A DNA stretch of 64,000 bases from positions 29,835 to 93,834 of the forward strand of contig JBDRJQ010000028.1 in NCBI GenBank assembly GCA_043814765.1, in the 5' to 3' direction. Within the stretch, counting starts at the first letter, position 1, and every line of letters begins with the position of its first letter. Source of the stretch: Nanobdellota archaeon (lineage in GTDB: Archaea > Aenigmatarchaeota > Aenigmatarchaeia > QMZP01). The notes beneath the pieces are model-generated. The model was not told the DNA's origin. It saw only the letters and a program-made list of their open reading frames with translations, and did not search any database. The position numbers and the translations under genes were made by a program. Below are positions 32,392 to 49,970 of the stretch, piece after piece.

Positions 32392-32718
32392 TTAGATTGA
32401 TTTTTTATTTATTGAGTTCTTATTTAAATGCTTGACTAGGTTTTTATAGAAATCTATAGCCTCACTAAGCATTTTTTCACCCTTTTCAGTAATATGGTAT
32501 ATTTTCTTTCTGCCATATTCTTCTTTTCTAACAAGACCTGATTTCCCTAAAAGATACAAAACTTTATAGGCAGTCATAGTACCTGGCTTGAATCCGAATC
32601 TTTTTTCTATTTCTTTGCGCAGAGTGTATGCGTGTGACGGTTCATCTTTAAGTATATGCAATATATATATCCACAAACATTCCCTAGTATTCAGTAACTT
32701 AAGACGTCTAAGAGGCAT
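32392..32718 (-). CDS. PadR-family transcriptional regulator
   Basis: 108 aa winged helix with LWIYILHILKDEPSHAYTLRKEIEKRFGFKPGTMTAYKVLYLLGKSGLV. Confidence 0.7.
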   Translation of the reverse strand: MPLRRLKLLNTRECLWIYILHILKDEPSHAYTLRKEIEKRFGFKPGTMTAYKVLYLLGKSGLVRKEEYGRKKIYHITEKGEKMLSEAIDFYKNLVKHLNKNSINKKSI

Positions 32719-32805: not shown

Positions 32806-32910
32806 TAACCTTTACAAAACAATGTCTTTCGTAGTGTCTTGCGTTCGGTTTTGAACGCAGAAAAACAAAACCTTTATATATACATTGTTACTAGGTAATA
32901 GTAACATAGC
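32806..32910 (+). promoter_or_regulatory. promoter block X: TGTCTTTCGTA + GTGTCTTGCGT motifs, TATA (CCTTTATATATA), TAATAGTAACA at predicted TSS; followed by a ~180-nt leader
   Basis: Same motif order recurs at 37080..37200 (block Y). Confidence 0.45.
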
Positions 32911-33086: not shown

Positions 33087-33839
33087 ATGAAGCTGTTAAA
33101 AACTACTGCCGTTCTTCTGTCGATTTTCTTTGTTCTCTGCATGGCCACTGTTTGCTATGCTGGCCCAGAAAACGGCAACGGCGCAGTTGACATTCTGACA
33201 AAGTCAGATTTGACTGATCTTCATAACACCATAATTATTGGAATTGTGGTGTTCGCATTAATCATGGTTGCGGTTATTCTTATTTTAATGTTTAGACCGC
33301 GACAAACACTTCCAGCAGTTGTTGAACTGGAACCGGAACCTGATAATCCTGAACCCAGCCCTGATTGGATGAGGTCCGGAGCAAAAAGAATAGCCAAAGA
33401 AGCGGTAGCTGGCATCGAAGAGGATCTCTCGATTGATATTGCCGGTGAATTGACAGATTTGGTAATAGGAGCAAGAACTGCTTCTGAAAACGCACGAAGA
33501 GAATTCATGCGTGTTTTCCGTCAAAGATTGAACGGTGGCAGCGATATCGATGCTCTTATAGATGAAGCCATCCGGCTAAGAGTGCGAGAACGGGGAGCTG
33601 AGCTTCCTCCGGAAGTTCTGGAACATGCAACAGATCCAACAGTTACTCAGGAAGAAGTGGATGCTCTTAACGCTGCTGTTAACACTGAAATGGCTCCGGA
33701 CCCGATTCTGACATTACTTGAGCGATTAGTGGATGGTCAGGCTGCTGCAACAGAAGCTATTCGAAATTTGACAGCTGCTGTAACACCTCCCCCTGACGAA
33801 ACATCGCATGCTCCAGACAGTAGCGGCGATGCAGGTTAA
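33087..33839 (+). CDS. secreted/membrane-anchored acidic protein (signal peptide, one TM, Pro/Glu-rich)
   Basis: N-terminal signal MKLLKTTAVLLSIFFVLCMATVCYA, TM IIIGIVVFALIMVAVILILMF. Higher GC than neighbours. AAGGAGA ribosome-binding site. Confidence 0.5.
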   Translation: MKLLKTTAVLLSIFFVLCMATVCYAGPENGNGAVDILTKSDLTDLHNTIIIGIVVFALIMVAVILILMFRPRQTLPAVVELEPEPDNPEPSPDWMRSGAKRIAKEAVAGIEEDLSIDIAGELTDLVIGARTASENARREFMRVFRQRLNGGSDIDALIDEAIRLRVRERGAELPPEVLEHATDPTVTQEEVDALNAAVNTEMAPDPILTLLERLVDGQAAATEAIRNLTAAVTPPPDETSHAPDSSGDAG

Positions 33840-33925
33840 CCCCCAACTGCCCAATAAACATGGGAGGAGAGTCTGTTCAATCAGGCCTCCTCCCAAAAAT
33901 CTCTGAACATTAAACAAGGAGGATT

Positions 33926-34405
33926 ATGATGAGAATCCTAAACATAATCTCATCTTTTTTTATTGCTTTCTGGGGACTGGTTAAGGGATTCTTCACCATT
34001 CTCCTGAAGTGCATTTGGATAGCAATCAAGTGGTTTTTCATAGCCCTTTGGAAACTGCTTAATTGGATCTGGAATAAAATCATTCTTGTCCAGAATTGGT
34101 TCAAAAGGACCAAACTTGGACGGGATTTGCGAAGAGGAAAGCGATGGCCGCGCATCACAGTGATGAGCCTAATGCTTTTCATTCTTTTTTCCGTCTTATG
34201 TTTTTCACTTCTTTTCTCCGGTCATAAAATGACTGGATTAATAATATCATTGTTTATTCTTTTTGGTCTTGTGCCTTTCTTTGGCACATGGGCCAGAAAT
34301 ATGTATCAAGCAGAGAATGCCGAACCAAAAAAGCGGCACTCAATGATTGACCATATTCCCTGGCCGTGGCTGAAAAATCATCCCTGGCGCAGAATTACAG
34401 CATAG
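33926..34405 (+). CDS. Trp-rich polytopic membrane protein
   Basis: 4 TM segments. AGGAGG ribosome-binding site 6 nt upstream. GC-rich island. Confidence 0.45.
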   Translation: MMRILNIISSFFIAFWGLVKGFFTILLKCIWIAIKWFFIALWKLLNWIWNKIILVQNWFKRTKLGRDLRRGKRWPRITVMSLMLFILFSVLCFSLLFSGHKMTGLIISLFILFGLVPFFGTWARNMYQAENAEPKKRHSMIDHIPWPWLKNHPWRRITA

Positions 34406-34459
34406 ATATCCTGATGAGGATGATTCCTGGGTGGAAAAAAAGGAAGAGAGGAGATCATC

Positions 34460-34795
34460 ATGGATGCAATTACCATCTCGGTTGGGCATCTGACATGCCT
34501 GCTATATCTCGCTTATATGGTGGGTTGGGTGCTAACCGAATTTGTCGCATATGCGACAAAAAACTTGAAGAGAAGAGGGGTAATCGTTCTGTTCTTGATT
34601 ATCCTGCTGTGCACCGCTGTTCTGTTGCATAATTTCAACAAATGGGATGCATATGGATCGTTTTTCATGGCGACTCTGTTTGTCTTCCCTCCGGCCGCTT
34701 TGGTGTTGCTTTCTCGAGAGGTAAGAGGAGGCAACAAATCAATTAGGGAGAGGATGAGAATCTTTGGTGGTGGCACTAAAGGAGATTCATCATGA
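34460..34795 (+). CDS. membrane protein (3 TM)
   Basis: GAGAGGAGA ribosome-binding site upstream. Overlaps the next gene by 4 nt (ATGA). Confidence 0.45.
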   Translation: MDAITISVGHLTCLLYLAYMVGWVLTEFVAYATKNLKRRGVIVLFLIILLCTAVLLHNFNKWDAYGSFFMATLFVFPPAALVLLSREVRGGNKSIRERMRIFGGGTKGDSS

Positions 34796-35091
34796 ACAAT
34801 TTTAATTTTATTATCGGAATCCTGGTAATCTCGACGCTTCTTTGTCTGGTTTTTGCTGTATGGAATTATCTGAAGCTCAAACGTTATCAGAACACTTATG
34901 TTTGGGCAAGTGGCAAAACTCAGAAAGGTGAGGACTTTCTCATTCTTTCAATTGAGGGTAAAGATGAGGATGCCACTCAGTATGAGTGCCATCGAGATGA
35001 AGAGGGCAAGATAACAATTATCGGACCTGCTGGTGAAAACCTTAAAGGCATTCAACACACGTTCGGTAACGGATATCGTCCTCGGATTTAG
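34792..35091 (+). CDS. small N-terminally anchored protein
   Basis: One TM then soluble domain. Translationally coupled to the upstream gene. Confidence 0.4.
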   Translation: MNNFNFIIGILVISTLLCLVFAVWNYLKLKRYQNTYVWASGKTQKGEDFLILSIEGKDEDATQYECHRDEEGKITIIGPAGENLKGIQHTFGNGYRPRI

Positions 35092-35176
35092 TTCAGGTAG
35101 AGGATGAGACCTCGTGGAACTTTAGGGTTTGATGGTGAGATACGATCAAAAATCCAAAGACCTAAGGAGGTCAACA

Positions 35177-35764
35177 ATGCAGATCGATTTGAATTACGTA
35201 GTAAACGCCATTCTGACCAACCTGGCATATGCAGTTGCGCTTGGGCTGGTTATGTGGGGAATTTGCAGGCTTCTGATAAAAGAACCTGAGGGCAATTACT
35301 GGGCACCAAGGGTCATGATGGTAATATTCCTGATCTCTGCGCTTGTCTTCACATTTTCTGTTGGAAGAATAACATTCCCAGCAGTTGACAATGCTGTAGA
35401 AAACATTTTCTCAGGTGTTTCAACATCGATAGCAAGTGCAACACCACATCCTGTGGTAAACATTCAGGTTGACACACCTCCTCCTACTGTAGTAATACAG
35501 AAGGAGACGAGTCAGCCAGTGGTCCGCGAAAGCGAACCGGTTCCAGAAACAACAGAAGGGGATACCTCAAATGAGAAATTTTCTGTAGACGGTCAGTTTG
35601 AAGATGGTACACCATACCATCTTTACACGATTGTCAGGGGCAATACCATATACAGCTTGTCCCGCAGATTTGGTGTCACCCAGGATGAACTTATGAGGCG
35701 GAACGATCTTAGGATTGGAACGCCTCTCCGTATCGGGAGGGATCTCAGGATTCCTATCAAATGA
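35177..35764 (+). CDS. membrane-anchored LysM-domain protein
   Basis: C-terminal LysM: YTIVRGNTIYSLSRRFGVTQDELMRRNDLRIGTPLRIGRDLRIP. Start placed at ATG 35177 with AAGGAGG 7 nt upstream; the ORF-track start 35129 is the alternative. Confidence 0.55.
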   Translation: MQIDLNYVVNAILTNLAYAVALGLVMWGICRLLIKEPEGNYWAPRVMMVIFLISALVFTFSVGRITFPAVDNAVENIFSGVSTSIASATPHPVVNIQVDTPPPTVVIQKETSQPVVRESEPVPETTEGDTSNEKFSVDGQFEDGTPYHLYTIVRGNTIYSLSRRFGVTQDELMRRNDLRIGTPLRIGRDLRIPIK

Positions 35765-37079: not shown

Positions 37080-37200
37080 TTTATTGTCTTGCGCAAGACA
37101 AGATTTGTCTTTCGTAATGAAAACAGCACAAATCGAGCTCAAAAAGTGTCTTGCGTACCGATAGCTTTATAAAGCCTTTGTCACTATTTAATAGTAACAA
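37080..37200 (+). promoter_or_regulatory. promoter block Y: palindrome TTGTCTTGCGCAAGACAA, TGTCTTTCGTA, GTGTCTTGCGT, TATA (GCTTTATAAAG), TAATAGTAACA
   Basis: Homologous to block X (32806..32910) with insertions. Lies 36 nt upstream of the ATG of the first gene of the HerA-like operon. Confidence 0.45.
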
Positions 37201-37235: not shown

Positions 37236-37910
37236 ATGAGTAATATATATGTTTCGGAAAATGTTGCAAAACATTTTATACAAGGTGTGACTGATCACGC
37301 CATGGAAGGACAATTGTTAGACATAGAAGGAGAAAAAGAGTTTGTTGTAACATACAGACATGAAGGAAATTTAATTCAAAACACTTTAGTTTTTCCTGTA
37401 AGTGGAAGTATTGAAATTTCAGTAGATTCTTTAAGAAAAAAATATCCAAACATTTACAAAACATTAACAAAAAATAATGATATTGGAGATGCAGATAATG
37501 TTCTTTTATACGAAACAGATTTTACAAAACACAGAGAATTAGTTATTAGCAAAAACGCTAATAATGAAAATTTAGCAAAATATATTGATTTTAATGATAA
37601 TCGTATCCCGTCATATGCAAATAGTGAGTTTGAGCCTGTAGAGGATAATTCTTTAGATAACTTGAAAGAGTCTGCAAATTCAGACTTAGAGTATAAAAGA
37701 GTAAATGGAGTTGTAAGAAACTCACTAACATTCAACTATGGTGAAGAAGAAGCCCAGAGAATGCTAGAAAACTACGGAGAACTTTGGTTTGCTGAAAATG
37801 GTCAATTCGCAGGAGCTAGAGAATGGAATCAATTAGGTGAAGAAAAAGGTTGGGATTTCATGAAAAGGTACACTGAAGATGCAAAAAGGTTTGCACCTAC
37901 AAAAGTTTAG
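37236..37910 (+). CDS. hypothetical protein, paralog 1 of operon (N-terminal YVSEN domain)
   Basis: Start at ATG 37236 with GGAGG 6 nt upstream; the ORF-track start was GTG 37224. MSNIYVSENVAKHF...QNTLVFPVSGSIEISVDSL parallels the next gene. Confidence 0.5.
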   Translation: MSNIYVSENVAKHFIQGVTDHAMEGQLLDIEGEKEFVVTYRHEGNLIQNTLVFPVSGSIEISVDSLRKKYPNIYKTLTKNNDIGDADNVLLYETDFTKHRELVISKNANNENLAKYIDFNDNRIPSYANSEFEPVEDNSLDNLKESANSDLEYKRVNGVVRNSLTFNYGEEEAQRMLENYGELWFAENGQFAGAREWNQLGEEKGWDFMKRYTEDAKRFAPTKV

Positions 37911-37930
37911 AATTAGATTAGAGGTAAAAT

Positions 37931-38485
37931 ATGGACAATAAATATGTTTCAGAGAATATAGCATTGCTTAAGGATGTTTTGGTTAGCTATTGTATTCTAG
38001 AAGGGACATTGATAGAAGGATTGAATGAAAATGAAAGCGGTATCCCAATGTCACCAATGTTCATCAATTCGTATGATGATGAAGATGGAGAATATGTACA
38101 TTTACTTAAATCTGGTTGCGATGTTAAATCTAGAAATACACTTGTATTTGATGTTGTTGATTATGTTGAAATCGATAAAGAAACTTTCGATATAATAAGT
38201 GATACTATGGGCAGAAACAGGCACGTATATACTTCTTCTGAAAAAATAGAAGAAATGAAAAGTATTTACGATCAAGGTAAAAAAGTGCTTTTCCCATTGC
38301 TTCCGGGAAGAACCGATAATTGGATTTACAAAAAATATAGATCAATTGTGGCTAAAGAAAGAATGAAAATATTTAAAGATGTTCCTATAGTTGAAGCCAT
38401 TAGATCTGATTCCGGTAGCAGAAAACATAACAGTTATCCAGCAGGAACAGATTCTGAAAAATTGTTTGAGGGGATATTAGATTAG
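37931..38485 (+). CDS. hypothetical protein, paralog 2 of operon (N-terminal YVSEN domain)
   Basis: MDNKYVSENIALLKDV...RNTLVFDVVDYVEIDKETF. Preceded by the 23-nt element ATTAGATTAGAGGTAAAATATGG. Confidence 0.5.
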   Translation: MDNKYVSENIALLKDVLVSYCILEGTLIEGLNENESGIPMSPMFINSYDDEDGEYVHLLKSGCDVKSRNTLVFDVVDYVEIDKETFDIISDTMGRNRHVYTSSEKIEEMKSIYDQGKKVLFPLLPGRTDNWIYKKYRSIVAKERMKIFKDVPIVEAIRSDSGSRKHNSYPAGTDSEKLFEGILD

Positions 38486-38494
38486 AGGTAAAAT

Positions 38495-39100
38495 ATGGCT
38501 GAAAAGAAAGGAAGAAAATATTTCGATGCAGAAGAACTAGAGGACATCTATTCATCTGGCATAGGTGAGGAACGCAGACATGAATTCTTAGACACACCTA
38601 CATCTTGGGATGACATAGACAAAGAGCCACGTGAAAGAGTGGAAAAGGTTCGCATCAAGACAGTTCAGACAATGCCTCGTCTTGAAGAAGAAGAGATGGA
38701 CAAACTTAAGATAATCAGCCCAAAAATAATTGGCAGTCTTTTTGATAGAGTAAAATTTTTGAAAGAAAGAATAGAAGAAACACAAAACACAATGAAAATG
38801 CGTACTGATATTCATAATGACATGTTAGCAGAGATAACTGAGGATATTAAGGAAAGACAGGGAATGTTGGGAAAGGCCATGAGCCTTGACGAGCAAAGAA
38901 GCATAAAACTTGACATGTCTGTTCTTAGAAAGGAAAAAAGAAAGGAAATAATTCAGTTATGGAGAGATATGTTTGATCTAAGAACTGAACTAAAGGAATT
39001 ACTAGAACAGTTCCAAAATGAACAAAAGCTTGCAGATCTTTTCTCTGAAATAAAACCTGAGAATAATAAGAAGGGAGGCATCGGAGAATCCGATATCTAG
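38495..39100 (+). CDS. highly charged coiled-coil protein
   Basis: Glu/Lys/Arg-rich heptad pattern throughout. Preceded by a second identical copy of the 23-nt element. Confidence 0.5.
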   Translation: MAEKKGRKYFDAEELEDIYSSGIGEERRHEFLDTPTSWDDIDKEPRERVEKVRIKTVQTMPRLEEEEMDKLKIISPKIIGSLFDRVKFLKERIEETQNTMKMRTDIHNDMLAEITEDIKERQGMLGKAMSLDEQRSIKLDMSVLRKEKRKEIIQLWRDMFDLRTELKELLEQFQNEQKLADLFSEIKPENNKKGGIGESDI

Positions 39101-39113
39101 GCAGGTTATAATT

Positions 39114-41351
39114 ATGATAGACATAAAAGAAAGATTATTCACTAGCGAAGTTAAGAAACTTATTCCAATCCTAGGCAGGGTTAATGTTGAAAGACTTAGC
39201 AAGGCATACTTGCTTGGTGATGAAGATACCAGATTAAGAATCTTCGAATTAATAGACGTAGCTAAGGCTGCTGTTTTCAGCGAAAACGAGCTTGGCGAAA
39301 GCATATTAATGGAGCCGCCTGAAAAAGAAGCTGTAGCTAAAGGAGAATTGACTCTTGGCAGTGTTCTTTATGGAAAGAAAAAAATGTATCCATTGAGATT
39401 CGAAAAGCAAAGGCTTTTGATGCACATGGGTATATTCGGTTCGTCTGGTTATGGTAAAACAAACCTTGCTCACAAAATGATACTAGAAATGGCAAACGAG
39501 GAATTGCCTATATTGATATTTGATTTCTCAAAGAGAAATTACAGAAAGCTATTAAGAACACCACTAAAGGACAGAATAGATATTTACACCGTGGGCAGAA
39601 ACACATCACCATTCAAATTCAATCCGCTTGTTCCTCCTGAAGGCATTCAAATGTCTCAGTGGATGAAGGAGTTCTCATCTGTATTCGATCATGCTTATTT
39701 CCTTATGGGCGGTGGTAGGCACATAATTATGAAGGCTTTTGACGGAGCTTTCGATGAGTCTGAAAAAACACCAAGATTGAGGGACCTTAAGGATTGGATA
39801 AACGAATACGCAGAACTCAAACTGCCAATGAGAGAGAAGAACTGGATAGCAACAGCTGCAAGGCCGTTGGATTCTCTAGTCTTCAGGGAAATTGGAGAGA
39901 TATTTGATTGTGATGTTGGTGTAAGGCCGTCTGATTTTTTCAAGAAAGGCAAGATAACTATTCTTGAACTGGATGCTCTTGACACTAATGACAAGACATT
40001 TTTCATAGAAATACTGTTACAGTGGATAAGAGATTGGCTTTTGGTAAACGATAAAAGAGAAGAGCTTATAGGAGCCATTATTTTAGAGGAAGCGCACCAT
40101 GTTCTGAACCGTGAAAAATCTATAAGAACTGGTTCAGAAACTGTTATGGATCTTTTGTTCAGAGAGATTAGAGAGCTAGGTCTAGGCATTATTTACTTGG
40201 ATCAGCACCCATCTTTAGTTTCTTATCCGGCTCTGGGTAATACATCTACTCATATTTATATGAATCTGGGACTTGATACAAAGCAGTCTTCAGATATACT
40301 AGATGCAACTCACATGCTTGGATTAGATTATGAAGAGGAAGGCAGCTATCTCAGAAGGCTTCCTGTAGGACAAGGCTTTATGCTTTGCAGAAACTTCGAA
40401 TTCCCAAGACCATTCCTTGTAAACTTCGATGAAGTGAAATTCACTGAAAAGGTAATAAAGGATGAAGAAGTAGCAGAACTGATGAAAACATACGACAAGA
40501 TTGTATCCAAACCAGTAGAACATAAAGTTGCAGAAAACATACCCAAAGAAGTAGTTAAGAAAACAAATGAAATAACAAGCGATATACAAAAAGCTGCTAA
40601 TGATCTTTTACGGGAAATAAAGCTGCTTACAGAAGAGTCTAGGGAATATGCTAAAGAAGAGTATATGGAAGACGCTAAAGAAGATGTAGTTGAGGAACCT
40701 GAAGAAAGAACAGAAATTATAGAACCTAAAATAGAAACACCAAAATTAGAAGACGTTAGCACAGTGGATATGCCCTTAGATAAGATAGACAAACAGGCAT
40801 GGAAAATAATTGATGTTGTTGGTAACGGTCATGGTGCATTTGCATCACAGATATACAAAAACGCCAGAGTATCTGGCACTGTTTTCAATGAAAAAATAGA
40901 GACACTTTTAGACCTGGGCTTAATTAAGCGTGTTGGTGGCAAAAGTGGCAAGAACAAGCTTCATTTTTATTACTTGACTGAAAAGGGAGAAAGGACATTT
41001 GATAGCAACTTCAGAAGATATGAAGGTGCTGTGGATGCTGACCTTTCAGGATTGCTAGAGCTGTTCTCTTTAGTCGGATGGAAAGCTACTCGTAAAGTAG
41101 ACATTCTGGAAATAACCAAAGAGGATGAGATACTTCCAGTTGCAATTATAGATTACACAGACAAAAATAAAATGTACGAAAGACTAAAGATAAACAAACA
41201 TTTTGTATGCGCAAACGAGACGCTAAAAAACATATTGGTGCAACAGGCAGCCAAGCGTTCATTAAAGAAACCAGGATTAACAATATTCGTTTCTACATTC
41301 AAGGATTTTGAAGATAACACAAAATTCGACAAAATAGAGTTCGATATTTGA
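39114..41351 (+). CDS. HerA/FtsK-superfamily (DUF87/AAA_10-like) ATPase fused to an acidic linker, a winged-helix domain and a C-terminal domain
   Basis: Walker A MGIFGSSGYGKTNLAHKM, Walker B DEAH-like IILEEAHHV, IYLDQHPS sensor-like motif. wHTH IYKNARVSGTVFNEKIETLLDLGLIKRV...YYLTEKGERTF. Confidence 0.6.
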   Translation: MIDIKERLFTSEVKKLIPILGRVNVERLSKAYLLGDEDTRLRIFELIDVAKAAVFSENELGESILMEPPEKEAVAKGELTLGSVLYGKKKMYPLRFEKQRLLMHMGIFGSSGYGKTNLAHKMILEMANEELPILIFDFSKRNYRKLLRTPLKDRIDIYTVGRNTSPFKFNPLVPPEGIQMSQWMKEFSSVFDHAYFLMGGGRHIIMKAFDGAFDESEKTPRLRDLKDWINEYAELKLPMREKNWIATAARPLDSLVFREIGEIFDCDVGVRPSDFFKKGKITILELDALDTNDKTFFIEILLQWIRDWLLVNDKREELIGAIILEEAHHVLNREKSIRTGSETVMDLLFREIRELGLGIIYLDQHPSLVSYPALGNTSTHIYMNLGLDTKQSSDILDATHMLGLDYEEEGSYLRRLPVGQGFMLCRNFEFPRPFLVNFDEVKFTEKVIKDEEVAELMKTYDKIVSKPVEHKVAENIPKEVVKKTNEITSDIQKAANDLLREIKLLTEESREYAKEEYMEDAKEDVVEEPEERTEIIEPKIETPKLEDVSTVDMPLDKIDKQAWKIIDVVGNGHGAFASQIYKNARVSGTVFNEKIETLLDLGLIKRVGGKSGKNKLHFYYLTEKGERTFDSNFRRYEGAVDADLSGLLELFSLVGWKATRKVDILEITKEDEILPVAIIDYTDKNKMYERLKINKHFVCANETLKNILVQQAAKRSLKKPGLTIFVSTFKDFEDNTKFDKIEFDI

Positions 41352-41598
41352 GCTCAAACACAACATGTTGTGGATTAATTTTAAATAAGTTAGTGGATAA
41401 AGTATAACTATCACAATAAGTATCATAATCTCAATTCACTAATTTGACTTGCAAAGTCCTTCGCATTAGCTCAACACTAACGCGTCGAATTTAAAAAGAA
41501 TGTTTTCCCATTAGCATCTCGCTAGTGGATAGGATATGCAACATTTCATAAGTGTTGGGTATCCTTTTTCTTGACGACTTCTCAGCGTTAAGCTGATC

Positions 41599-41626
41599 AG
41601 CAGCTAGAAATAGCTGCTATTTTTTT
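41599..41626 (+). terminator. hairpin AGCAGCTA-GAAA-TAGCTGCT followed by ATTTTTTT
   Basis: Perfect 8-bp stem, GAAA loop, T7 run. About 250 nt downstream of the HerA-like gene stop. Confidence 0.45.
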
Positions 41627-42494
41627 GACGACTACCGATTTCTAGAAGACCGTCCAACATGAATTCTACGCACAGCACTCTACAAATTCAGGGTGCAGGT
41701 GTATGAGAGACAGTCTATATGACTAGGCTTGAAATAGGTCTCTCGCTGAATGCAACTCTTTGATGGTAATTCTAGATAACCTGATAGGAGGAGAGACCTG
41801 TTTTTGAAAGTAAGCGTCAGTTTCTGTAACGGATTCTGACGATGGTTATAAAAACAGGGCTTTCACTTCGGTGTTAGCCCTACGAAAACAATCAGCAGCT
41901 TGTCTGCGCTTTCATTTAGCGGTTTCAAGTTCGGAAATCAACATCCGAACCGTTAAGATGTCACAGGTGCGCTTACATATTAGCGCGCCTGTTTTTTGAG
42001 AATACGGAACTTGGGGAAACCCTGGATCCTTTTCTACCAAGAGGAAGAGAGCCACAATTGAAGATTCGGCCTTACTAAAAGCTGGGCCAACCCCTTCATA
42101 AAGGATTGAACCTCTTGGTTTTTTGAAAACAATGCAAAGCCGGATCATAAAAACTGTCCAATGATCCGGCAGCTTAAATAATGGACAGGCAAGATCCACA
42201 ATACATTCGAATCGCGGTTCAAACCACAATTTCGGTTTCGGGCGCTTGTAATCACAGCACGACAGAAGAGTTCTTATTTAATGAACTCACATCGTTTCTC
42301 CACTCATCTGCAAGTAATTCTTCGTCCTGCAGCAGTCTCCTTCCACCTTTCCTTCCGTAACGCCTCCACCGATTCTAGTTTACGGCACAATATCTTCTGG
42401 CACAGTATCTTCTGGGATTGTATAAAACGAAGTAACAATTTCCCAGATTGATACAAATTTAAACGCGTCTCTCTTCCCCCCGTAAAAAGGGAAA

Positions 42495-42531
42495 GTGCCC
42501 GACTCCTTCCGCGACTCGGGCACTTTTTTTT
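42495..42531 (+). terminator. GC-rich hairpin GTGCCCGA-N13-TCGGGCAC followed by TTTTTTTT (intrinsic-terminator-like)
   Basis: 8-bp G/C stem plus T8. Would end a + strand transcript arising in the ORF-free region. Confidence 0.45.
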
Positions 42532-42910
42532 GTCCAGCTCATGACTACCGAAAGCAAGGATCGATGATTTAAACATTTACCTGAAACAGCGTGTAATCGG
42601 CACGCATACTCCAGGAATCAACAGATAGATGAGGAGGCCCGAAAAACAAATTAATAATCGCACGAAAGTTGTATTGGTTTTTCAAAAACCTATTCGGTAA
42701 AATCATTGCACAGCCAACAAGCGGTGCAAAATTAACTCAAAAAAGAGAACGGCACTTTGAGGTAAATGAGACATTATTGAATTTAAGCGACACCGAAAAG
42801 AGCCAATCTTAAACGCAGAAGCGATGATCAAACCATCCTTCTGCTTCTTTACATATATCTACTAAAAGGGATATAAGCAATAATCTGCAAACATGCTTCA
42901 AACAAAAAAA

Positions 42911-43216
42911 TTACTTCTTTTTGATGTACTTCTTGAACCATTTAAGAATTGTCCAGCGAGAAACCTTGATCCCGTGCCTGTGTTTCATCTCCTGCTGCAC
43001 CTCGGACAGAGAGAGGCCTTTACTGTAGAGAGCTACAGCTTTCATTATTGTATCTTTTTTGAACCTCATCCGCAGGAAATTGTCGTTTGGGGTATACTTG
43101 CGTCCGCACTTTTTACAGAGCCGAAGGTGCTTTTTAGTTGACTCGTTATACCTAAAACCTCTCCACACAGTGTTTGTGCTCTGGCAATGCGCACATCTCT
43201 CAATTTTATCTTTCAT
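42911..43216 (-). CDS. zinc-ribbon + HTH transposase-like protein (IS1 InsA-like/ISNCY-like helper); possible IS remnant
   Basis: CAHCQS...C-x-x-C (CKKCGRKY) N-terminal zinc ribbon then HTH GLSLSEVQQEMKHRHGIKVSRWTILKWFKKY. No catalytic transposase ORF nearby. Confidence 0.4.
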   Translation of the reverse strand: MKDKIERCAHCQSTNTVWRGFRYNESTKKHLRLCKKCGRKYTPNDNFLRMRFKKDTIMKAVALYSKGLSLSEVQQEMKHRHGIKVSRWTILKWFKKYIKKK

Positions 43217-45197: not shown

Positions 45198-48100
45198 TCA
45201 CAACCCCGACAGGTCCGCCTTCCAGACGCCGTATTCTGTGAGACCGAAAATTAAATATTTATTGTCTGGGGTGAGTGCCAGGTTGTCTGCGACATTGTCC
45301 CTTACCTGGTTGTCTACTATCAGCTCTTTGCCTGGCAGGCCACTGTTTATGATTTTCCAGCTGGCTCCGGCGTCCCTGCTTATGTAAACACCCACGTTGG
45401 TGCTTAAAAACAGTATGTTATGGTTTGGCGGATAAATCAGAAGCGTGTAGAATTCGCTTCCGCTATAAAGGCCGTTCATAATCCTGAACCAGTTCTCTCC
45501 GCCGTCTATTGTTTTCATCACAATACCGCAAAAAGTGTCTTTGTTTCTCTCACAGAAGCCCATGTTCTGCCCGTTCTTAGTTGAGGTATACATTATGCTT
45601 GGATTGTCGCTGTCGATTGCGATTGTGTAAGGCCACTGCTCAGGAGGCATGCCATTGCTTATCATCTCCCACGTTCTTCCTTTATTCAGTGATTTCACAA
45701 CCCCGTTGTATGTTCCTGCAAATAATATGCTGTGATTATGGGGGTGCATGCTCAAAGAAAACATGCCATCATTTCCCAGTTTCAGGCTTGAATCCTCCCA
45801 TGTATGCCCATTGTCCTCGCTTATGAAAAACCCGCTTGGGAAATGACCATAATAAATCTTTCCAGGGACATCAGGGTCAAACAGTATTGAGCTGAACTGA
45901 TACATCCTTCTTTCCCACGGGCTCCACCATCCGCCGCCAAATATGCCCTTTCCAAGACTCTGCCAGCTTTTGCTTGCAGAATTGAATTTATATATCCCGT
46001 ATCCAGCAGTTCCTGCGTAAATATCAGCACCTGTTAAGCCTATTGTTATGACAATATCATCCACATGAATCTCCCCTTCTAGTGATTCAAAAGCAATCCC
46101 TCCGTTCAATAGCGACTCGGTATCAGTATAATCTATCTTCAAATCATCATCAACATAAACCTTAACGTTGTTTCCATTGCCGACAATTTTAATGTCATAC
46201 CACCTGTCTCTGCTAAATGCCATGTCTTTATTTATCAGGTTCGTATGAACGCTATTATAAGTTCGCATCAGGTATAAGCTCCCACTGTTTAGACCTATAG
46301 CATACCTATCACTACCACTAACGCGGTAATTAATATGAACCGAGCCTTTGATTAACTTTACCCTACTCTCGAAAGTGTAATCAGTCCAGCTCTCTGAACC
46401 ACCACTAATCCAGTTATGGTCAATGCCCTGCAAGACATAGTTGCCGCCTTCCTGGATGACAGACCATCCAGTGTCTGACTTCCATCCGTCTGCGTTCCCG
46501 TCCTCAAAATCATCTCCAAGGGGCGGTCCTTCTATGTTTACAACCTTTAGCGATCTTATATCAAGGGTTTTTAGTCCGTCATTCATTTCAGTCCAACTTT
46601 CTCCATCATCACGGGTCACGAACACGCCTTCTTGAGTTCCTACATAAACTGTTTCCGAGTCTTTAGGATCAACAACAACAGCAGTTATAGGTTTCCTGAG
46701 CAACTCATTCTCATTTCCGTTGGCAAACATGCTCACACTCATATACTCGTGAGATCTGTACATTCCCTTTCCGTATGCGCCCATCCAAACGTCTGCCGGA
46801 TTGTTTGGGTCTATAGCAAAACTGTAGTATCCCTGTGTAATTGGATCATCCACAATAATGCTCGGCTGAGCGGTGTTTCTCTCATACCAAGTTTCTCCTC
46901 TATCATCACTTCGGAACATCCCTCCTGGATAAGCAGTTGCATAAATTCGATTAGAATTTGTTGGATCAATTTCAACCTGAATTCTGGAAATGTATGTTTT
47001 TGGTTTGTTGCTTCTGGAATTGTCCCAAGTAATTGAATAATCGTCATTGACAATCCCTGCATAAACCCCGCTTGCCCCTACAGCTGCGTAAACATAACCA
47101 TCTTCAGCTATAAGCGCAGCTGTGCCCAAACTTGGCAAACCCTCATTCTCCTGTTTCCAAGTTTCGCCACCATCACTGCTAACAAAAATACCCTGAGTGC
47201 TTGAGGCTACATACAAAAGATTCGGGTTCTGCGGATCAATCTCAACTGCCATAGTCGCGTGTTCGGTTTCGAGCATACGGGTCCAGGTTTCTCCGCCGTC
47301 TGTTGATTTGTAGGCTCCGCATGCATCCTGCTCTATGTTTTTAGGCAGTCCGGTAGGTTCAATTATATACTCAGGCAGCAATTCGCACAACCCTGCAGCA
47401 TACAGGGTGTTGCTATTGGAATAATCCACATCAATATCGTAGTACCCAAGCCTTGGAAGGCCTCCTTCCTTGTCATCCAGTCTCTCCCAGGTTTCTCCGC
47501 CATCAACACTCTTGAAAACTCCATATCCGTGCTTTGAAACATAAATTGTATTTGGATTGTTTGGATCAACCTCCATTTCAACCGTAGATTCAGCTACGCC
47601 TTCATCATTACCTGGCAGGTTTTCGTTCAGATCTGCTACCATCTCACCATTTATAATCTTTAGTAGTGAACCAGCCGCAACACAGAACGGACGCCCGAAA
47701 GTAGCTGCATAAATCGTATCTGGGTTGTTTGGATCAATTGCTACAGCGCTTGTCAGGACATTAGTTCTATCAAATTCATAATATTCTTCCCAAGTAAGCC
47801 CGCTGTCTTCGGATTTGTGTATAACTGGTTTAAGTCTGTCACATGCGTAAATAATGTCTGGATTTTTTTCAGAAATCGCCAAGCATGTCGGAGACTCAGG
47901 TGCGTTATCAAGCTTCACCCAATTACTTCCTCCGTCAATAGTCTTATAAGTCCCTCCGCCCCAGGTGCCTGCATAAACTATGTCTTTATCCCTTGGATCA
48001 ATCTGAAGCTGTGAATGACGCATAATGGTTGCAAATGTTAGCTCATCGTTAAGTTTACTCCAGGTTTCTCCTTTATTATTGCTCACATAGATGGTTCCTT

Positions 48101-49970
48101 CCTCTCCGATTACTCCTGCGTACATTCTGTCCGGGTTTAGCGGGTCAAACCTGAGCGATGTTATTCCTCTGGAATTCTCAACCCTGAATATCTCGCTCCA
48201 GACGTTTTGGTTTTTGGAATATCTCCAAATAGATGAATGGTTCTCAAATATCTTTGGCGAATACGTGGCATAGATAAAATTGCTGTTCTCTGGATCGATC
48301 TCAATATCATAAGTATAATCAGGGGAATATGTGAGATACCGCCAGCCCCCTTGCGAAGAGGCCTCTGAAATGCCGACACCTATATTGGACGCGTAGATTG
48401 TGCCGGAGTCTTTTGCTATCTCAAAATCAAAAATCTTTGCAGATGAAAAATCCTGAGCGATTTGTGTGAAAGTTCTCCCTCCATCATATGATTCGTATAA
48501 GTCGGTCAGTTCATCAGCCAGCAGGATGTGGTCTGAGTTGTGCGGGTCAATCTTTACATCGTCTCCGGCAGCGACTGGCGTGAATGGTTCCCAAGTATTT
48601 CCAAAATCCCTTGTGACATATGATTCCTGAATAACATTTCCTGAGGTGAACACAACATTCGGGTCTGTTGGGTGGGTCATGACAATGGTGGGGGATGTCC
48701 CTATAATATCACTGTCCATCTTTTTCCATGTTTTCATGCCATCCTCTGACTTAACCATTCCCAGAGCCCATATAGAGCCGGTCTTGCCGTAAGCTATGTT
48801 TGGGTTTTCATAATCAATCAAGAGTGCATCCAAGTTAAAGCCCACTTTTTCAAATACCTTGAGTCTTGGTTCATTGATTCGTTCATAACTAGAGCCATCT
48901 ATCTTAAGTATTGGAATGCCACCATAAGGATTCAGAAGATAATAAGCTGAGCCTGAAATAACAACATCTTCTACTCCATTGGATTCTAAAGTCAGATCTG
49001 TCACAGGGTTCCATGTTTTTCCTCCGTCATAGGATTCTCTTAAGAGCTCAGATATCGGGGAAAACCCCTCATGCACGATGTTGTATCTGAATGGTATCAC
49101 TATGTGTTGAGGATTGTCTGGGTTCTGAACAATCTTTGAAATAATAACACCGTCAGGTGTGTCAAAATCAATCGTGGACCATGTCCCACCAAGGTCTTCT
49201 GAAACGTACAAATAATTTTTTGAGAGTTCCCCTCTGCCACCTTTCATTACATTGATAGCTACCAAGATTCTATTTCCAAGCGCAATAATATTTCGAATTC
49301 CTATATCCTTATCATTTGTCGACAGTACTAAATCTTTCCAGTCAAAATTTCCCGAGGCCTCCCAAGAAGCTAGGTCAGCATACGATATTTCACCACCACC
49401 CATCTTTCCGTCACCAGAAATTATGAAAAGTTTATTGTCACTAACAAAGGGCTTTCCAAAATACCTGTCTGATATTTTTACAGGGTTTCTATTATTGTCA
49501 TAGTAATAAAGACCATCATCACAAATAAAAAATAATTTATCCTTGAAAAGTGCCATTGAATGAACACTGCCTATGATATCCTGTCCCTGCATTAGCTGCC
49601 AGCTTTCGCCTTTATCTACAGACTTCCGTATACCTTCAATAGTTATTACATACAATTCATGCGGCGGGAGGGGATTTTGTATCAATTGTTTTATACGCCC
49701 TCCTGGCGGGCCATTCATGGATACCCATGAAATGCTTGAATCAGCTTCCGGGTGGTACTGGACTTCTTCTCCCCCAAGTTTTTCCTGGACGCATGCATTA
49801 TTTTTGCACGCATAACCAACAGGGCAGATTTTAGTTTGATACTGTTTATCATCAACACAGCATTCGTATGGGCAGTATCCATCCACAAGTGGACTTTCTT
49901 CTGTAACGCATCCGCTGATAAGAACAATTCCTATAATCAATAATCCAATCAAAATTTTTGATTTCATCAT
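45198..49970 (-). CDS. 1590-aa secreted multi-propeller protein with 15 or more BNR/Asp-box (S-x-D-x-G-x-T-W) repeats, N-terminal Cys-rich module and an internal concanavalin/LamG-like (DUF1080-like) domain
   Basis: Signal MMKSKILIGLLIIGIVLISGC. Repeats SYDGGKTW, SEDLGGTW, SNNKGETW, TIDGGSNW, SEDSGLTW, SVDGGETW, STDGGETW, SSDGGETW, SDDRGETW, TRDDGESW, SEDNGHTW, SLNKGRTW, TIDGGENW, SRDAGASW. LamG-like block DDFEDGNADGWKSDTGW...YDIKIVGNGNNVKVYVDD. Confidence 0.6.
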   Translation of the reverse strand: MMKSKILIGLLIIGIVLISGCVTEESPLVDGYCPYECCVDDKQYQTKICPVGYACKNNACVQEKLGGEEVQYHPEADSSISWVSMNGPPGGRIKQLIQNPLPPHELYVITIEGIRKSVDKGESWQLMQGQDIIGSVHSMALFKDKLFFICDDGLYYYDNNRNPVKISDRYFGKPFVSDNKLFIISGDGKMGGGEISYADLASWEASGNFDWKDLVLSTNDKDIGIRNIIALGNRILVAINVMKGGRGELSKNYLYVSEDLGGTWSTIDFDTPDGVIISKIVQNPDNPQHIVIPFRYNIVHEGFSPISELLRESYDGGKTWNPVTDLTLESNGVEDVVISGSAYYLLNPYGGIPILKIDGSSYERINEPRLKVFEKVGFNLDALLIDYENPNIAYGKTGSIWALGMVKSEDGMKTWKKMDSDIIGTSPTIVMTHPTDPNVVFTSGNVIQESYVTRDFGNTWEPFTPVAAGDDVKIDPHNSDHILLADELTDLYESYDGGRTFTQIAQDFSSAKIFDFEIAKDSGTIYASNIGVGISEASSQGGWRYLTYSPDYTYDIEIDPENSNFIYATYSPKIFENHSSIWRYSKNQNVWSEIFRVENSRGITSLRFDPLNPDRMYAGVIGEEGTIYVSNNKGETWSKLNDELTFATIMRHSQLQIDPRDKDIVYAGTWGGGTYKTIDGGSNWVKLDNAPESPTCLAISEKNPDIIYACDRLKPVIHKSEDSGLTWEEYYEFDRTNVLTSAVAIDPNNPDTIYAATFGRPFCVAAGSLLKIINGEMVADLNENLPGNDEGVAESTVEMEVDPNNPNTIYVSKHGYGVFKSVDGGETWERLDDKEGGLPRLGYYDIDVDYSNSNTLYAAGLCELLPEYIIEPTGLPKNIEQDACGAYKSTDGGETWTRMLETEHATMAVEIDPQNPNLLYVASSTQGIFVSSDGGETWKQENEGLPSLGTAALIAEDGYVYAAVGASGVYAGIVNDDYSITWDNSRSNKPKTYISRIQVEIDPTNSNRIYATAYPGGMFRSDDRGETWYERNTAQPSIIVDDPITQGYYSFAIDPNNPADVWMGAYGKGMYRSHEYMSVSMFANGNENELLRKPITAVVVDPKDSETVYVGTQEGVFVTRDDGESWTEMNDGLKTLDIRSLKVVNIEGPPLGDDFEDGNADGWKSDTGWSVIQEGGNYVLQGIDHNWISGGSESWTDYTFESRVKLIKGSVHINYRVSGSDRYAIGLNSGSLYLMRTYNSVHTNLINKDMAFSRDRWYDIKIVGNGNNVKVYVDDDLKIDYTDTESLLNGGIAFESLEGEIHVDDIVITIGLTGADIYAGTAGYGIYKFNSASKSWQSLGKGIFGGGWWSPWERRMYQFSSILFDPDVPGKIYYGHFPSGFFISEDNGHTWEDSSLKLGNDGMFSLSMHPHNHSILFAGTYNGVVKSLNKGRTWEMISNGMPPEQWPYTIAIDSDNPSIMYTSTKNGQNMGFCERNKDTFCGIVMKTIDGGENWFRIMNGLYSGSEFYTLLIYPPNHNILFLSTNVGVYISRDAGASWKIINSGLPGKELIVDNQVRDNVADNLALTPDNKYLIFGLTEYGVWKADLSGL

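Follow-up and report, generated by a model that had tools for sequence, protein, structure and literature searches.

A conserved chromosomal two-gene module with an FtsK/HerA-superfamily winged-helix ATPase in Aenigmatarchaeota

Comparison with described systems

The described systems closest to the locus studied here are the archaeal HerA-NurA resection complex (HerA, PF01935), the FtsK/SpoIIIE motors with their gamma winged helix reading KOPS/SRS, the VirB4, VirD4 (TrwB) and Ced ATPases, and the DptH/DndH C-terminal ATPase of DndFGH phosphorothioation-dependent restriction. Partition cassettes (ParABS, archaeal SegAB, AspA-ParB-ParA of pNOB8) are a further point of comparison. Here, we analyzed four adjacent genes, A to D (Table 1), in a stretch of 64,000 nt from a Nanobdellota archaeon (assembly GCA_043814765.1, contig JBDRJQ010000028.1, positions 29,835 to 93,834), in the following referred to as the window; all positions are given relative to its first nucleotide.

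The 745-aa protein D scores above the gathering cutoff of Pfam DUF87 (PF01935) and carries a Walker A (GSSGYGKT, residues 109-116) and a Walker B motif (LEEAHH, residues 324-329), i.e., it is a member of the FtsK-HerA superfamily. In contrast to HerA, it has neither a HAS barrel nor a NurA partner nor an mre11/rad50 context. That is, the AF2 model shows only helices for its residues 1-75, with the ATPase core starting at about residue 76, A, B and C show no NurA or nuclease match, and NurA, mre11 and rad50 are missing among the neighbors both in the window and across the examined loci. Instead, D adds the helical N-terminal domain, a winged helix-turn-helix (wHTH) and a C-terminal domain to the ATPase, and its partner is a coiled-coil protein.

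With regard to FtsK/SpoIIIE, the likeness is one of layout: in D, too, a ring ATPase of this superfamily would be followed by a long flexible linker and, further towards the C-terminus, by a winged helix with the potential to read a short DNA word. D does not show the combination of FtsK_SpoIIIE motor domain, Ftsk_gamma winged helix and N-terminal TM domain. Compared to VirB4, VirD4 (TrwB) and Ced ATPases, D lacks a TM segment (maximum 19-residue hydropathy of 1.04) and thus a membrane anchor, no T4SS, Ced, relaxase or pilin genes are located nearby, and the chromosomal context is one of housekeeping genes. Respective model scores are low: 16 bits for NCBIfam VirB4_plasma (cutoff 590), 21.1 bits for Pfam TrwB_AAD_bind with an alignment confined to 44 residues at the P-loop, and 51 bits for NF053655 CedD (cutoff 600), while no membrane neighbor that could correspond to CedA is conserved across the family. 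DptH/DndH differs in that D comes without DptF/DptG or dnd genes, has 745 aa with a different set of domains and shows the conservation pattern of a core gene.

Partition cassettes resemble the locus by analogy only, i.e., a small operon codes for an NTPase and a putative site-specific DNA-binding function, and repeats or palindromes just upstream may serve autoregulation. On the other hand, the NTPase of D is of FtsK/HerA type rather than a ParA/Walker-type deviant, ATPase and DNA-binding domain form one polypeptide, and there is no sign of filament or gradient mechanics. When screening defense systems with PADLOC (MADS, HerA-Sir2/DUF4297, type III-associated HerA), only D matches ATPase models (mads_8 with 3e-14, HerA with 1e-7) while A, B and C match none, and no methylase, Sir2, nuclease or other system genes are found nearby. 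Inoviruses have been reported in Aenigmarchaeota (PMC6813254). We thus also considered D as an inovirus morphogenesis ATPase (pI/Zot) and rejected this candidate given no Zot Pfam match, no TM segment, no relatives among 2.9 million IMG/VR contigs and housekeeping flanks.

Table 1. Positions of genes, protein domains and regulatory elements within the window.
Feature	Position	Strand	Description
PadR-family wHTH regulator	32392..32718	-	Pfam PadR E=8e-13; conserved neighbor
Second copy of regulatory architecture	32822..32906	+	TGTCTTTCG, TGTCTTGCG, TATA, GTTACTA-N5-TAGTAAC
Operator repeats	37084..37155	+	perfect palindrome TTGTCTTGCGCAAGACAA (37084-37101), TGTCTTTCG (37106-37114), TGTCTTGCG (37147-37155)
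Core promoter	37165..37199	+	TATA-like CTTTATAAAG (37165-37174), then inverted repeat GTCACTA-N5-TAGTAAC (37180-37198)
Gene A	37236..37910	+	224-aa acidic soluble orphan protein
Exact 23-nt repeat ATTAGATTAGAGGTAAAATATGG, copy 1	37912..37934	+	spans SD and start codon of B
Gene B	37931..38485	+	184-aa acidic soluble orphan protein
Exact 23-nt repeat ATTAGATTAGAGGTAAAATATGG, copy 2	38476..38498	+	covers the last part of B as well as SD and start codon of C
Gene C	38495..39100	+	201-aa protein; coiled-coil
D, residues 1-75	39114..39338	+	conserved helical N-terminal domain, not a HAS barrel (AF2 secondary structure, invariant residues)
D, residues 76-460	39339..40493	+	FtsK/HerA-superfamily P-loop ATPase
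D, residues 461-555	40494..40778	+	charged low-confidence linker, length variable
D, residues 556-635	40779..41018	+	winged helix-turn-helix, MarR/HxlR type
D, residues 636-745 and stop	41019..41351	+	confidently modelled alpha/beta C-terminal domain

Two of the four genes are conserved

The four ORFs share one orientation, lie 20, 9 and 13 nt apart and form one predicted transcription unit with a single TATA/operator region (37084-37199). The four-gene operon of the preliminary description therefore stands for this genome, including its common promoter region; it does not stand as a conserved system, since only C and D are conserved. A and B are found in none of 84 related C-D loci (0/84), the closest relative included. 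Such a lack of four-gene synteny in other genomes had been named in advance as evidence against the proposal, and it is what we observe, with A and B being without any homologue. We thus reject the four-gene system; the unit of interest is the C-D pair together with its operator.

Among 5.8 billion protein clusters, the products of A and B each match only themselves, and their shared N-terminal domain had earlier been described as matching no recognized family. The likeness of their N-termini noted before is recovered as well, albeit as a weak similarity over about 100 aa according to paralogy statistics. Gene A has a GC3 of 0.20 compared to 0.34 for C, D and the neighboring inositol-1-P synthase (MIPS), and gene B one of 0.24; the product of A has a pI of 4.8 and no TM segment as judged by hydropathy. 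Small ORFs are found upstream of C elsewhere (e.g., those of 83 and 72 aa in locus L005), for which phmmer finds no kinship with A or B. The protein of "cluster 7", located upstream of C in other genomes, was likewise rejected as a relative, since it is a membrane protein with two TM segments and does not resemble A or B. A and B are genome-specific orphans that were probably inserted between the conserved promoter and C and would now be co-transcribed with C-D as recent passengers.

C and D themselves are found in 85 loci from 86 species genomes, nearly all of them Aenigmatarchaeota, with D identities of 44-69% across these genomes. C homologues form 71 representative clusters within 1.84 billion proteins. 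In 82/85 loci C adjoins D, mostly with a stop/start overlap of 4-8 nt, and the pairwise identities of C and D are correlated (rho 0.79). Between D and MIPS, compared with a view to vertical inheritance, the correlation of identities is weak (rho 0.22), with locus L001 confounding the value by its different type of MIPS. Synteny and co-variation thus suggest that C is an obligate partner of D.

Neighbors of C-D comprise genes for the ribosomal proteins L24e, S28e and L7Ae, PadR, MIPS, ArgRS and LeuRS as well as aCPSF, ABCE1 and eRF1-like genes. PadR genes are located near C-D in 7 further loci. The supposed IS-like gene at 42911-43216 turns out to be a free-standing Zn-ribbon+HTH protein, which is a conserved neighbor in 17 loci. 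No membrane neighbor is common to the whole C-D family; in 6 loci, the gene immediately preceding the C promoter codes for a 2-TM protein. The ORF-poor 1.5 kb following D give no Rfam, tRNA or blastx signal. No relatives of D or C-D are present in IMG/VR (2.9 million contigs) or in phage or plasmid collections. The mobile-element or defense function assumed before is thus contradicted by the retention of C-D across 86 species genomes in syntenic housekeeping neighborhoods and the lack of such relatives. Being conserved across one DPANN group, among housekeeping genes and behind a conserved control sequence, C-D is a chromosomal two-gene module and most probably a core machine, not a defense or mobile element.

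Domains of C and D and their operator

The fusion of an FtsK/HerA-superfamily ATPase with a wHTH, already recognized in the preliminary description, is confirmed by both the profile score and the wHTH fold; its statement that D represents neither NurA-HerA nor VirB4/TraG nor any PADLOC defense architecture agrees with the comparison above. The 385-residue motor domain shows 60-80% identity across the phylum with intact catalytic motifs. Its best fold match is DptH, and the structurally closest ATPases are DptH and VirB4. The linker has pLDDT values below 50 at residues 459-477 and 514-552 of the AF2 model; homologues of D are mostly about 670-700 aa long compared to 745 aa here. The winged helix consists of a three-helix bundle with a beta-hairpin wing as in the MarR/HxlR type, and the centromere-binding wHTH of AspA is among the Foldseek matches. 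For the C-terminal domain no structural match was found in the PDB. Its alpha-beta3-alpha-beta topology brought up a PD-(D/E)xK nuclease as candidate, which is not supported given no invariant acidic/Lys triad and no structural match. In the libraries and literature searched, no member of the FtsK/HerA superfamily is described with this domain architecture, and the C-D pair is uncharacterized.

C has a variable N-terminus of about 60 aa, followed by a conserved amphipathic-helix/coiled-coil core (residues ~60-187) as seen from its periodicity, and shows no Pfam or PDB match. A G-LFDR motif led us to consider a PspA/Vipp1/ESCRT-III-like protein, a candidate that we rejected; the hhalign probability is below 1% for both E. 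coli PspA and a Vipp1 sequence. Furthermore, PspA_IM30 and Snf7 are absent among the 25 families listed of the 107 matched by 47 C homologues.

The shared operator/promoter blocks reported before are real and, in addition, conserved across the phylum upstream of C-D. The motif TGTCTT(G/T)CG is 29-fold enriched from -350 to +60 of the C start across related loci. C-D promoters contain 1-5 copies of it, next to the TATA box, and a GT(T/C)ACTA inverted repeat downstream of the latter; GT(T/C)ACTA is found upstream of C in 15/65 loci, where 1.6 are expected. Within the window, TGTCTT(G/T)CG is located upstream of A and again upstream of a neighboring membrane/LysM operon (33087-35764), i.e., the second regulatory copy lies between the latter and the PadR gene. 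Such secondary sites often precede membrane proteins. The Pfam assignment of genes downstream of them yields mostly no match and one CAAX protease. Outside the C-D flanks, the motif occurs at about chance frequency in the sequence sampled (about 20 expected by our own estimate). This makes a genome-wide guidance like that of FtsK by KOPS improbable; simple control of transcription at the locus would be enough. Besides D, the PadR regulator or the Zn-ribbon/HTH protein could bind the operators.

Proposed role and alternatives

We favor, with about even confidence, a reading in two layers. The first would be a vertically inherited chromosomal C-D operon with a conserved promoter that is specific to Aenigmatarchaeota-type DPANN archaea, into which A and B were inserted as the second. 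D would assemble into a ring ATPase, as other members of the superfamily do, and act on double-stranded DNA, while its own winged helix would tether it to the TGTCTT(G/T)CG repeats flanking its operon. Such tethering would result in autoregulation and possibly provide a local loading or centromere-like site; C would bind D as an adaptor or regulator. The likeliest role of C-D would then be housekeeping chromosome handling (of the segregation, partition or resolution type) rather than defense or mobile-element DNA transfer. It counts against a role in segregation that the structurally closest ATPases, DptH and VirB4, act in defense and secretion.

Given the secondary motif sites in front of membrane proteins and the 2-TM protein in 6 loci, an envelope-associated machine fits as well as chromosome handling. 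Here, D would provide the cytoplasmic ATPase to an apparatus resembling Ced/T4SS that takes up or transfers DNA (or protein), with fast-evolving membrane subunits encoded adjacently under the same operator, which could serve the acquisition of DNA or nucleotides from the host of these symbiotic archaea. We nevertheless regard it as unlikely, since none of A-D has a TM segment, no membrane neighbor is conserved across the family, the CedD score stays below its cutoff, relaxase, pilin or VirB6/8-like genes are missing nearby, and known uptake ATPases do not come with a sequence-specific wHTH. The confinement of the motif to the flanks of C-D and neighboring promoters, the MarR/HxlR-like fold of the wHTH and the operators adjoining the TATA box would also suit a D that is mainly a local transcription factor, with the HerA-like domain as an ATP-dependent switch or sensor and C as co-regulator, controlling C-D and a few adjacent, often membrane-protein, genes. 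A motor of this size and conservation goes far beyond the needs of a switch, such that we find this quite unlikely; no member of the FtsK/HerA superfamily is known to us as a pure transcription factor.

A novel anti-virus/anti-plasmid defense system or mobile-element module made up of all four genes is very unlikely. HerA-type ATPases are found in several defense systems, D matches mads_8 and has DptH as its best fold match, and orphans of deviant composition such as A and B are typical of islands. However, the four-gene synteny is missing in other genomes, C-D lies within conserved housekeeping synteny, neither effector domains (nuclease, Sir2, TIR, protease) nor other MADS or Dnd genes are present, and viral and plasmid collections hold no relatives. 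A divergent NurA-HerA-type module for DNA end resection and repair, in which C takes the place of NurA, is highly improbable in view of the helical N-terminus of D without a HAS barrel, no NurA-like or other nuclease, no adjacent mre11/rad50 genes and the extra wHTH that is not found in HerA.

Returning to the two-layer reading, it corrects the initial four-gene picture: the C-D pair with its operator is what to study, it is most probably neither a defense system nor a mobile element, and it does not belong in catalogues of such systems. In the tiny genomes of DPANN archaea, genes that are retained and strongly conserved can mostly be assumed to matter. To our knowledge, it is largely unknown how they segregate, repair and acquire DNA. 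A more far-reaching version, which we put forward as a rather doubtful possibility, takes C-D as a phylum-wide essential DNA-handling machine, i.e., a ring motor with its own sequence reader that would load at centromere-like TGTCTT(G/T)CG repeats beside its operon. Its task, be it chromosome partition/resolution or the intake of host DNA, would be one for which ParA/SegAB, FtsK or Ced are used elsewhere, with A and B as lineage-specific co-expressed modulators. In any case, the co-evolving proteins C and D and a DNA word of 9 bp, kept across at least 86 species, make up a compact study target that can be tested directly in vitro.

Conservation and domain composition of C and D

The four ORFs of the operon (A-D) lie where the preliminary description had placed them, all on the forward strand (see table), and are separated by gaps of 20, 9 and 13 nt. 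GGAGGT and a TATA-like CTTTATAAAG are found 5' of A. Since the gaps are too short to hold internal promoters, a single A-D transcription unit is the simplest reading of the sequence.

D carries the motifs GSSGYGKTN and LEEAHHV and scores above cutoff on the Pfam DUF87/HerA central domain, i.e., it is a member of the FtsK-HerA superfamily, which agrees with the proposed DUF87/HerA-type ATPase with winged helix (wHTH), the wHTH match itself being weak. Its AF2 model (mean pLDDT 77) comprises five regions (see table), with no HAS barrel in the N-domain. Residues 367-393 (window 40212-40292; SLVSYPALGNTSTHIYMNLGLDTKQSS) are almost invariant in the family at a pLDDT below 50 and are a candidate pore or interface loop. 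A, B and C gave zero matches in Pfam, NCBIfam, PADLOC and PHROGs; the preliminary description had likewise recognised no family in the domain shared by A and B. Membership of D or the operon in HerA-NurA, VirB4/VirD4, FtsK/SpoIIIE, Ced and inovirus pI families was tested and rejected, as was membership of C in PspA/ESCRT-III.

We found more than 400 D homologues, the best 120 of which show 46-69% identity, are mostly 655-700 aa long and come from DPANN metagenome bins; a 100% identical protein is present in an NCBI MAG labelled 'Nanoarchaeota archaeon'. When one genome per GTDB species was scanned, D relatives were observed in 86 genomes, nearly all labelled Aenigmatarchaeota and a few Nanoarchaeota, Nanohalarchaeota or Nanobdellati; the isolated other labels are probably due to mis-binning. 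ORFs were called in the window and in all 84 loci that had been fetched. Of these 85 loci, 82 have C, which invariably lies just 5' of D in the same orientation and typically shares 4 or 8 nt with it. The two-gene synteny is very strongly conserved. Pairwise identities of C and D co-vary (rho 0.79), and the ATPase region of D is as conserved as the adjacent metabolic enzyme. For the closest relative, L005, identities are 69% (D), 77% (C) and 79% (MIPS, the inositol-1-phosphate synthase encoded upstream of A). C proteins form a small, self-contained family, with 71 representative clusters from 1.84 billion proteins.

Features of the operon and of related loci
Feature	Sequence	Position	Strand	Remark
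A	window	37236-37910	+	
B	window	37931-38485	+	
C	window	38495-39100	+	
D	window	39114-41351	+	
Helical N-domain	D	residues 1-75		AF2 model
ATPase core	D	residues 76-460		AF2 model
Charged linker	D	residues 461-555		AF2 model, low confidence
wHTH	D	residues 556-635		AF2 model
Alpha/beta domain	D	residues 636-745		AF2 model
Five membrane or secreted proteins	window	33087-35764	+	last with LysM; promoter 32822-32906
23-nt direct repeat	window	37912-37934, 38476-38498		
Spacer 3' of D	window	41352-42910		
Zn-ribbon + HTH protein	window	42911-43216	-	100-101 aa, free-standing
1590-aa protein	window	45198-49970	-	
351-aa ORF + 71-aa HTH-like ORF	L005	1938-3213	-	A-B slot, opposite strand
83-aa ORF	L005	3896-4147		between operator and C
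72-aa ORF	L005	4740-4958		wedged between C and D
234-aa gene	L001	12485-13189	-	
Two-TM protein	L001	4806-5264		
Two-TM protein	L006	4644-5063		
Two-TM protein	L007	5733-6263		
Two-TM protein	L011, L013, L017			

Promoter elements and the orphan genes A and B

The region 5' of A holds the palindrome TTGTCTTGCGCAAGACAA, two more copies of the 9-mer TGTCTT(G/T)CG, a TATA box and the inverted repeat GTCACTA-N5-TAGTAAC. This element set recurs in the same order upstream of the 33087 operon, which bears out the proposed shared operator/promoter blocks; all 6 exact 9-mers of the 64-kb window are upstream of one of the two. In related loci, we counted 34 sites within 26.5 kb (-350 to +60 of C) versus 31 in the other 707 kb, i.e., a 29-fold difference in density. 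Exact copies occur in 22/65 loci, the arrays being direct or inverted with 9-13 bp spacing, and further loci show degenerate GTCTT copies. GT(T/C)ACTA is also enriched (15/65 loci versus 1.6 expected). About 12 of the 'outside' sites are directly 3' of D before the next gene, often one for a membrane protein; the remaining ones are, by our estimate, at about chance frequency. Given this concentration of both motifs 5' of C, the C-D promoter is conserved phylum-wide. In this genome, A and B are placed between that promoter and C, and a near-copy of the element set is predicted to drive the 33087 membrane/LysM operon.

The similarity reported for A and B is real but weak: BLASTP yields E=0.004 and the score is equalled by 0/3000 N-terminal shuffles (z=6.5) and 15/3000 full-length shuffles. 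In phmmer at database size, the similarity does not reach significance. Both genes are restricted to the window among the loci with called ORFs, no homologues besides themselves are found among 5.8 billion protein clusters, and the MIPS-to-C slot of L005 carries other genes. The four-gene synteny is thus absent elsewhere, an outcome that the preliminary description itself had named as refuting. A-B look inserted (GC3 of 0.20-0.24 versus 0.34). B is flanked by an exact 23-nt direct repeat, ATTAGATTAGAGGTAAAATATGG, which provides B and C with the same Shine-Dalgarno sequence and the same start codon and looks like the scar of an event that inserted or duplicated B. Other small ORFs occupy the surroundings of C in L005, which makes this region a hotspot of small genes specific to single lineages.

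Genomic neighbourhood

The window's gene order is TP-methylase, L24e, S28e, L7Ae, PadR, the 33087 block, MIPS, A, B, C, D, 1.5 kb without ORFs, Zn-ribbon/HTH and ArgRS. The homologous locus L001 has the same order except for the 33087 block and A-B, at whose positions a gene for a CDP-alcohol phosphatidyltransferase and a number of small uncharacterised ORFs are found; L005 shares MIPS, C-D and Zn-ribbon/HTH-ArgRS. Other loci place C-D next to LeuRS, an aCPSF-type beta-CASP RNase, ABCE1, eRF1/Pelota-like, GTPase, phosphoglycerate mutase or PadR genes. D relatives are absent from 2.9 million IMG/VR contigs, and phage and plasmid collections contain remote DUF87 matches only (22-36% identity). 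Conserved neighbours and the lack of closer viral or plasmid relatives are typical of a pair of core genes inherited vertically. The foreign-looking island suggested earlier therefore does not extend to C-D, while it fits A-B and the 33087 block, which has a higher GC content (0.43-0.46) and looks inserted.

The gene previously called IS-like encodes a free-standing protein and is conserved next to C-D/ArgRS in 17 loci. Its product is similar to the N-terminal part of certain transposases and is probably a regulator of domesticated origin rather than an IS. In L001, a gene with nSTAND3 and faint Zot matches, unrelated to D, is located between this gene and ArgRS, which is noteworthy since inoviruses were reported in Aenigmarchaeota (PMC6813254). 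In the spacer 3' of D, ORFs do not exceed 105 aa, the GC content is 0.43-0.46 (0.33-0.38 nearby) and several strong hairpins are followed by T-runs. It yields no tRNA, no Rfam match at gathering score and no blastx match to the neighbours in related loci, nor does it align with the corresponding spacer of L005; an ncRNA or decayed genes could be present. Further downstream, a probable large surface protein combines Sortilin/Vps10-type and BNR/Asp-box repeats with a concanavalin/laminin-G-like domain. In one subclade, a conserved protein of ~140-175 aa with two TM helices is encoded directly 5' of the C-D promoter and is a possible partner of C-D in the membrane.

Possible function of the C-D pair

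Our functional reading builds on fold families, intact catalytic motifs, the obligatory linkage and co-variation of C and D, the conserved operator and the housekeeping context. Members of the FtsK-HerA superfamily are ring-forming pumps of DNA or peptides, and D would accordingly form a ring motor. With its fused wHTH and the repeats conserved at its own promoter, it would bind these 9-mers and regulate itself, the bound repeats possibly being a centromere-like site or one for local loading. From synteny, co-variation and the translational coupling of the two genes, C would be a physical partner of D. D resembles FtsK in its logic of motor, linker and winged helix, and C-D resemble partition cassettes in layout (an NTPase operon with repeats upstream). 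We weakly favour a role in chromosome handling.

An envelope-associated translocation motor competes with this role, given the membrane-protein neighbours under the same operator and the VirB4/TrwB-like fold of D; D might also act purely as a local transcription factor through the same wHTH and repeats. NurA-HerA-like repair is another rival; the helical N-domain of D speaks against it, in line with the earlier statement that the operon resembles neither NurA-HerA nor a known defence system. A defence or mobile-element function, as first proposed, is at odds with the housekeeping synteny, the IMG/VR result and the rejected membership in any PADLOC system. We consider a conserved two-gene housekeeping module with an orphan insert highly probable compared to a four-gene defence or mobile system. 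Chances are about even for our explanation overall, and the specific site-tethered DNA-motor mechanism is rather doubtful.

Our searches found no description of the C-D family in the literature. A new defence system would have been more exotic, but C-D constitute a well-defined, testable, phylum-wide unknown of DPANN biology.
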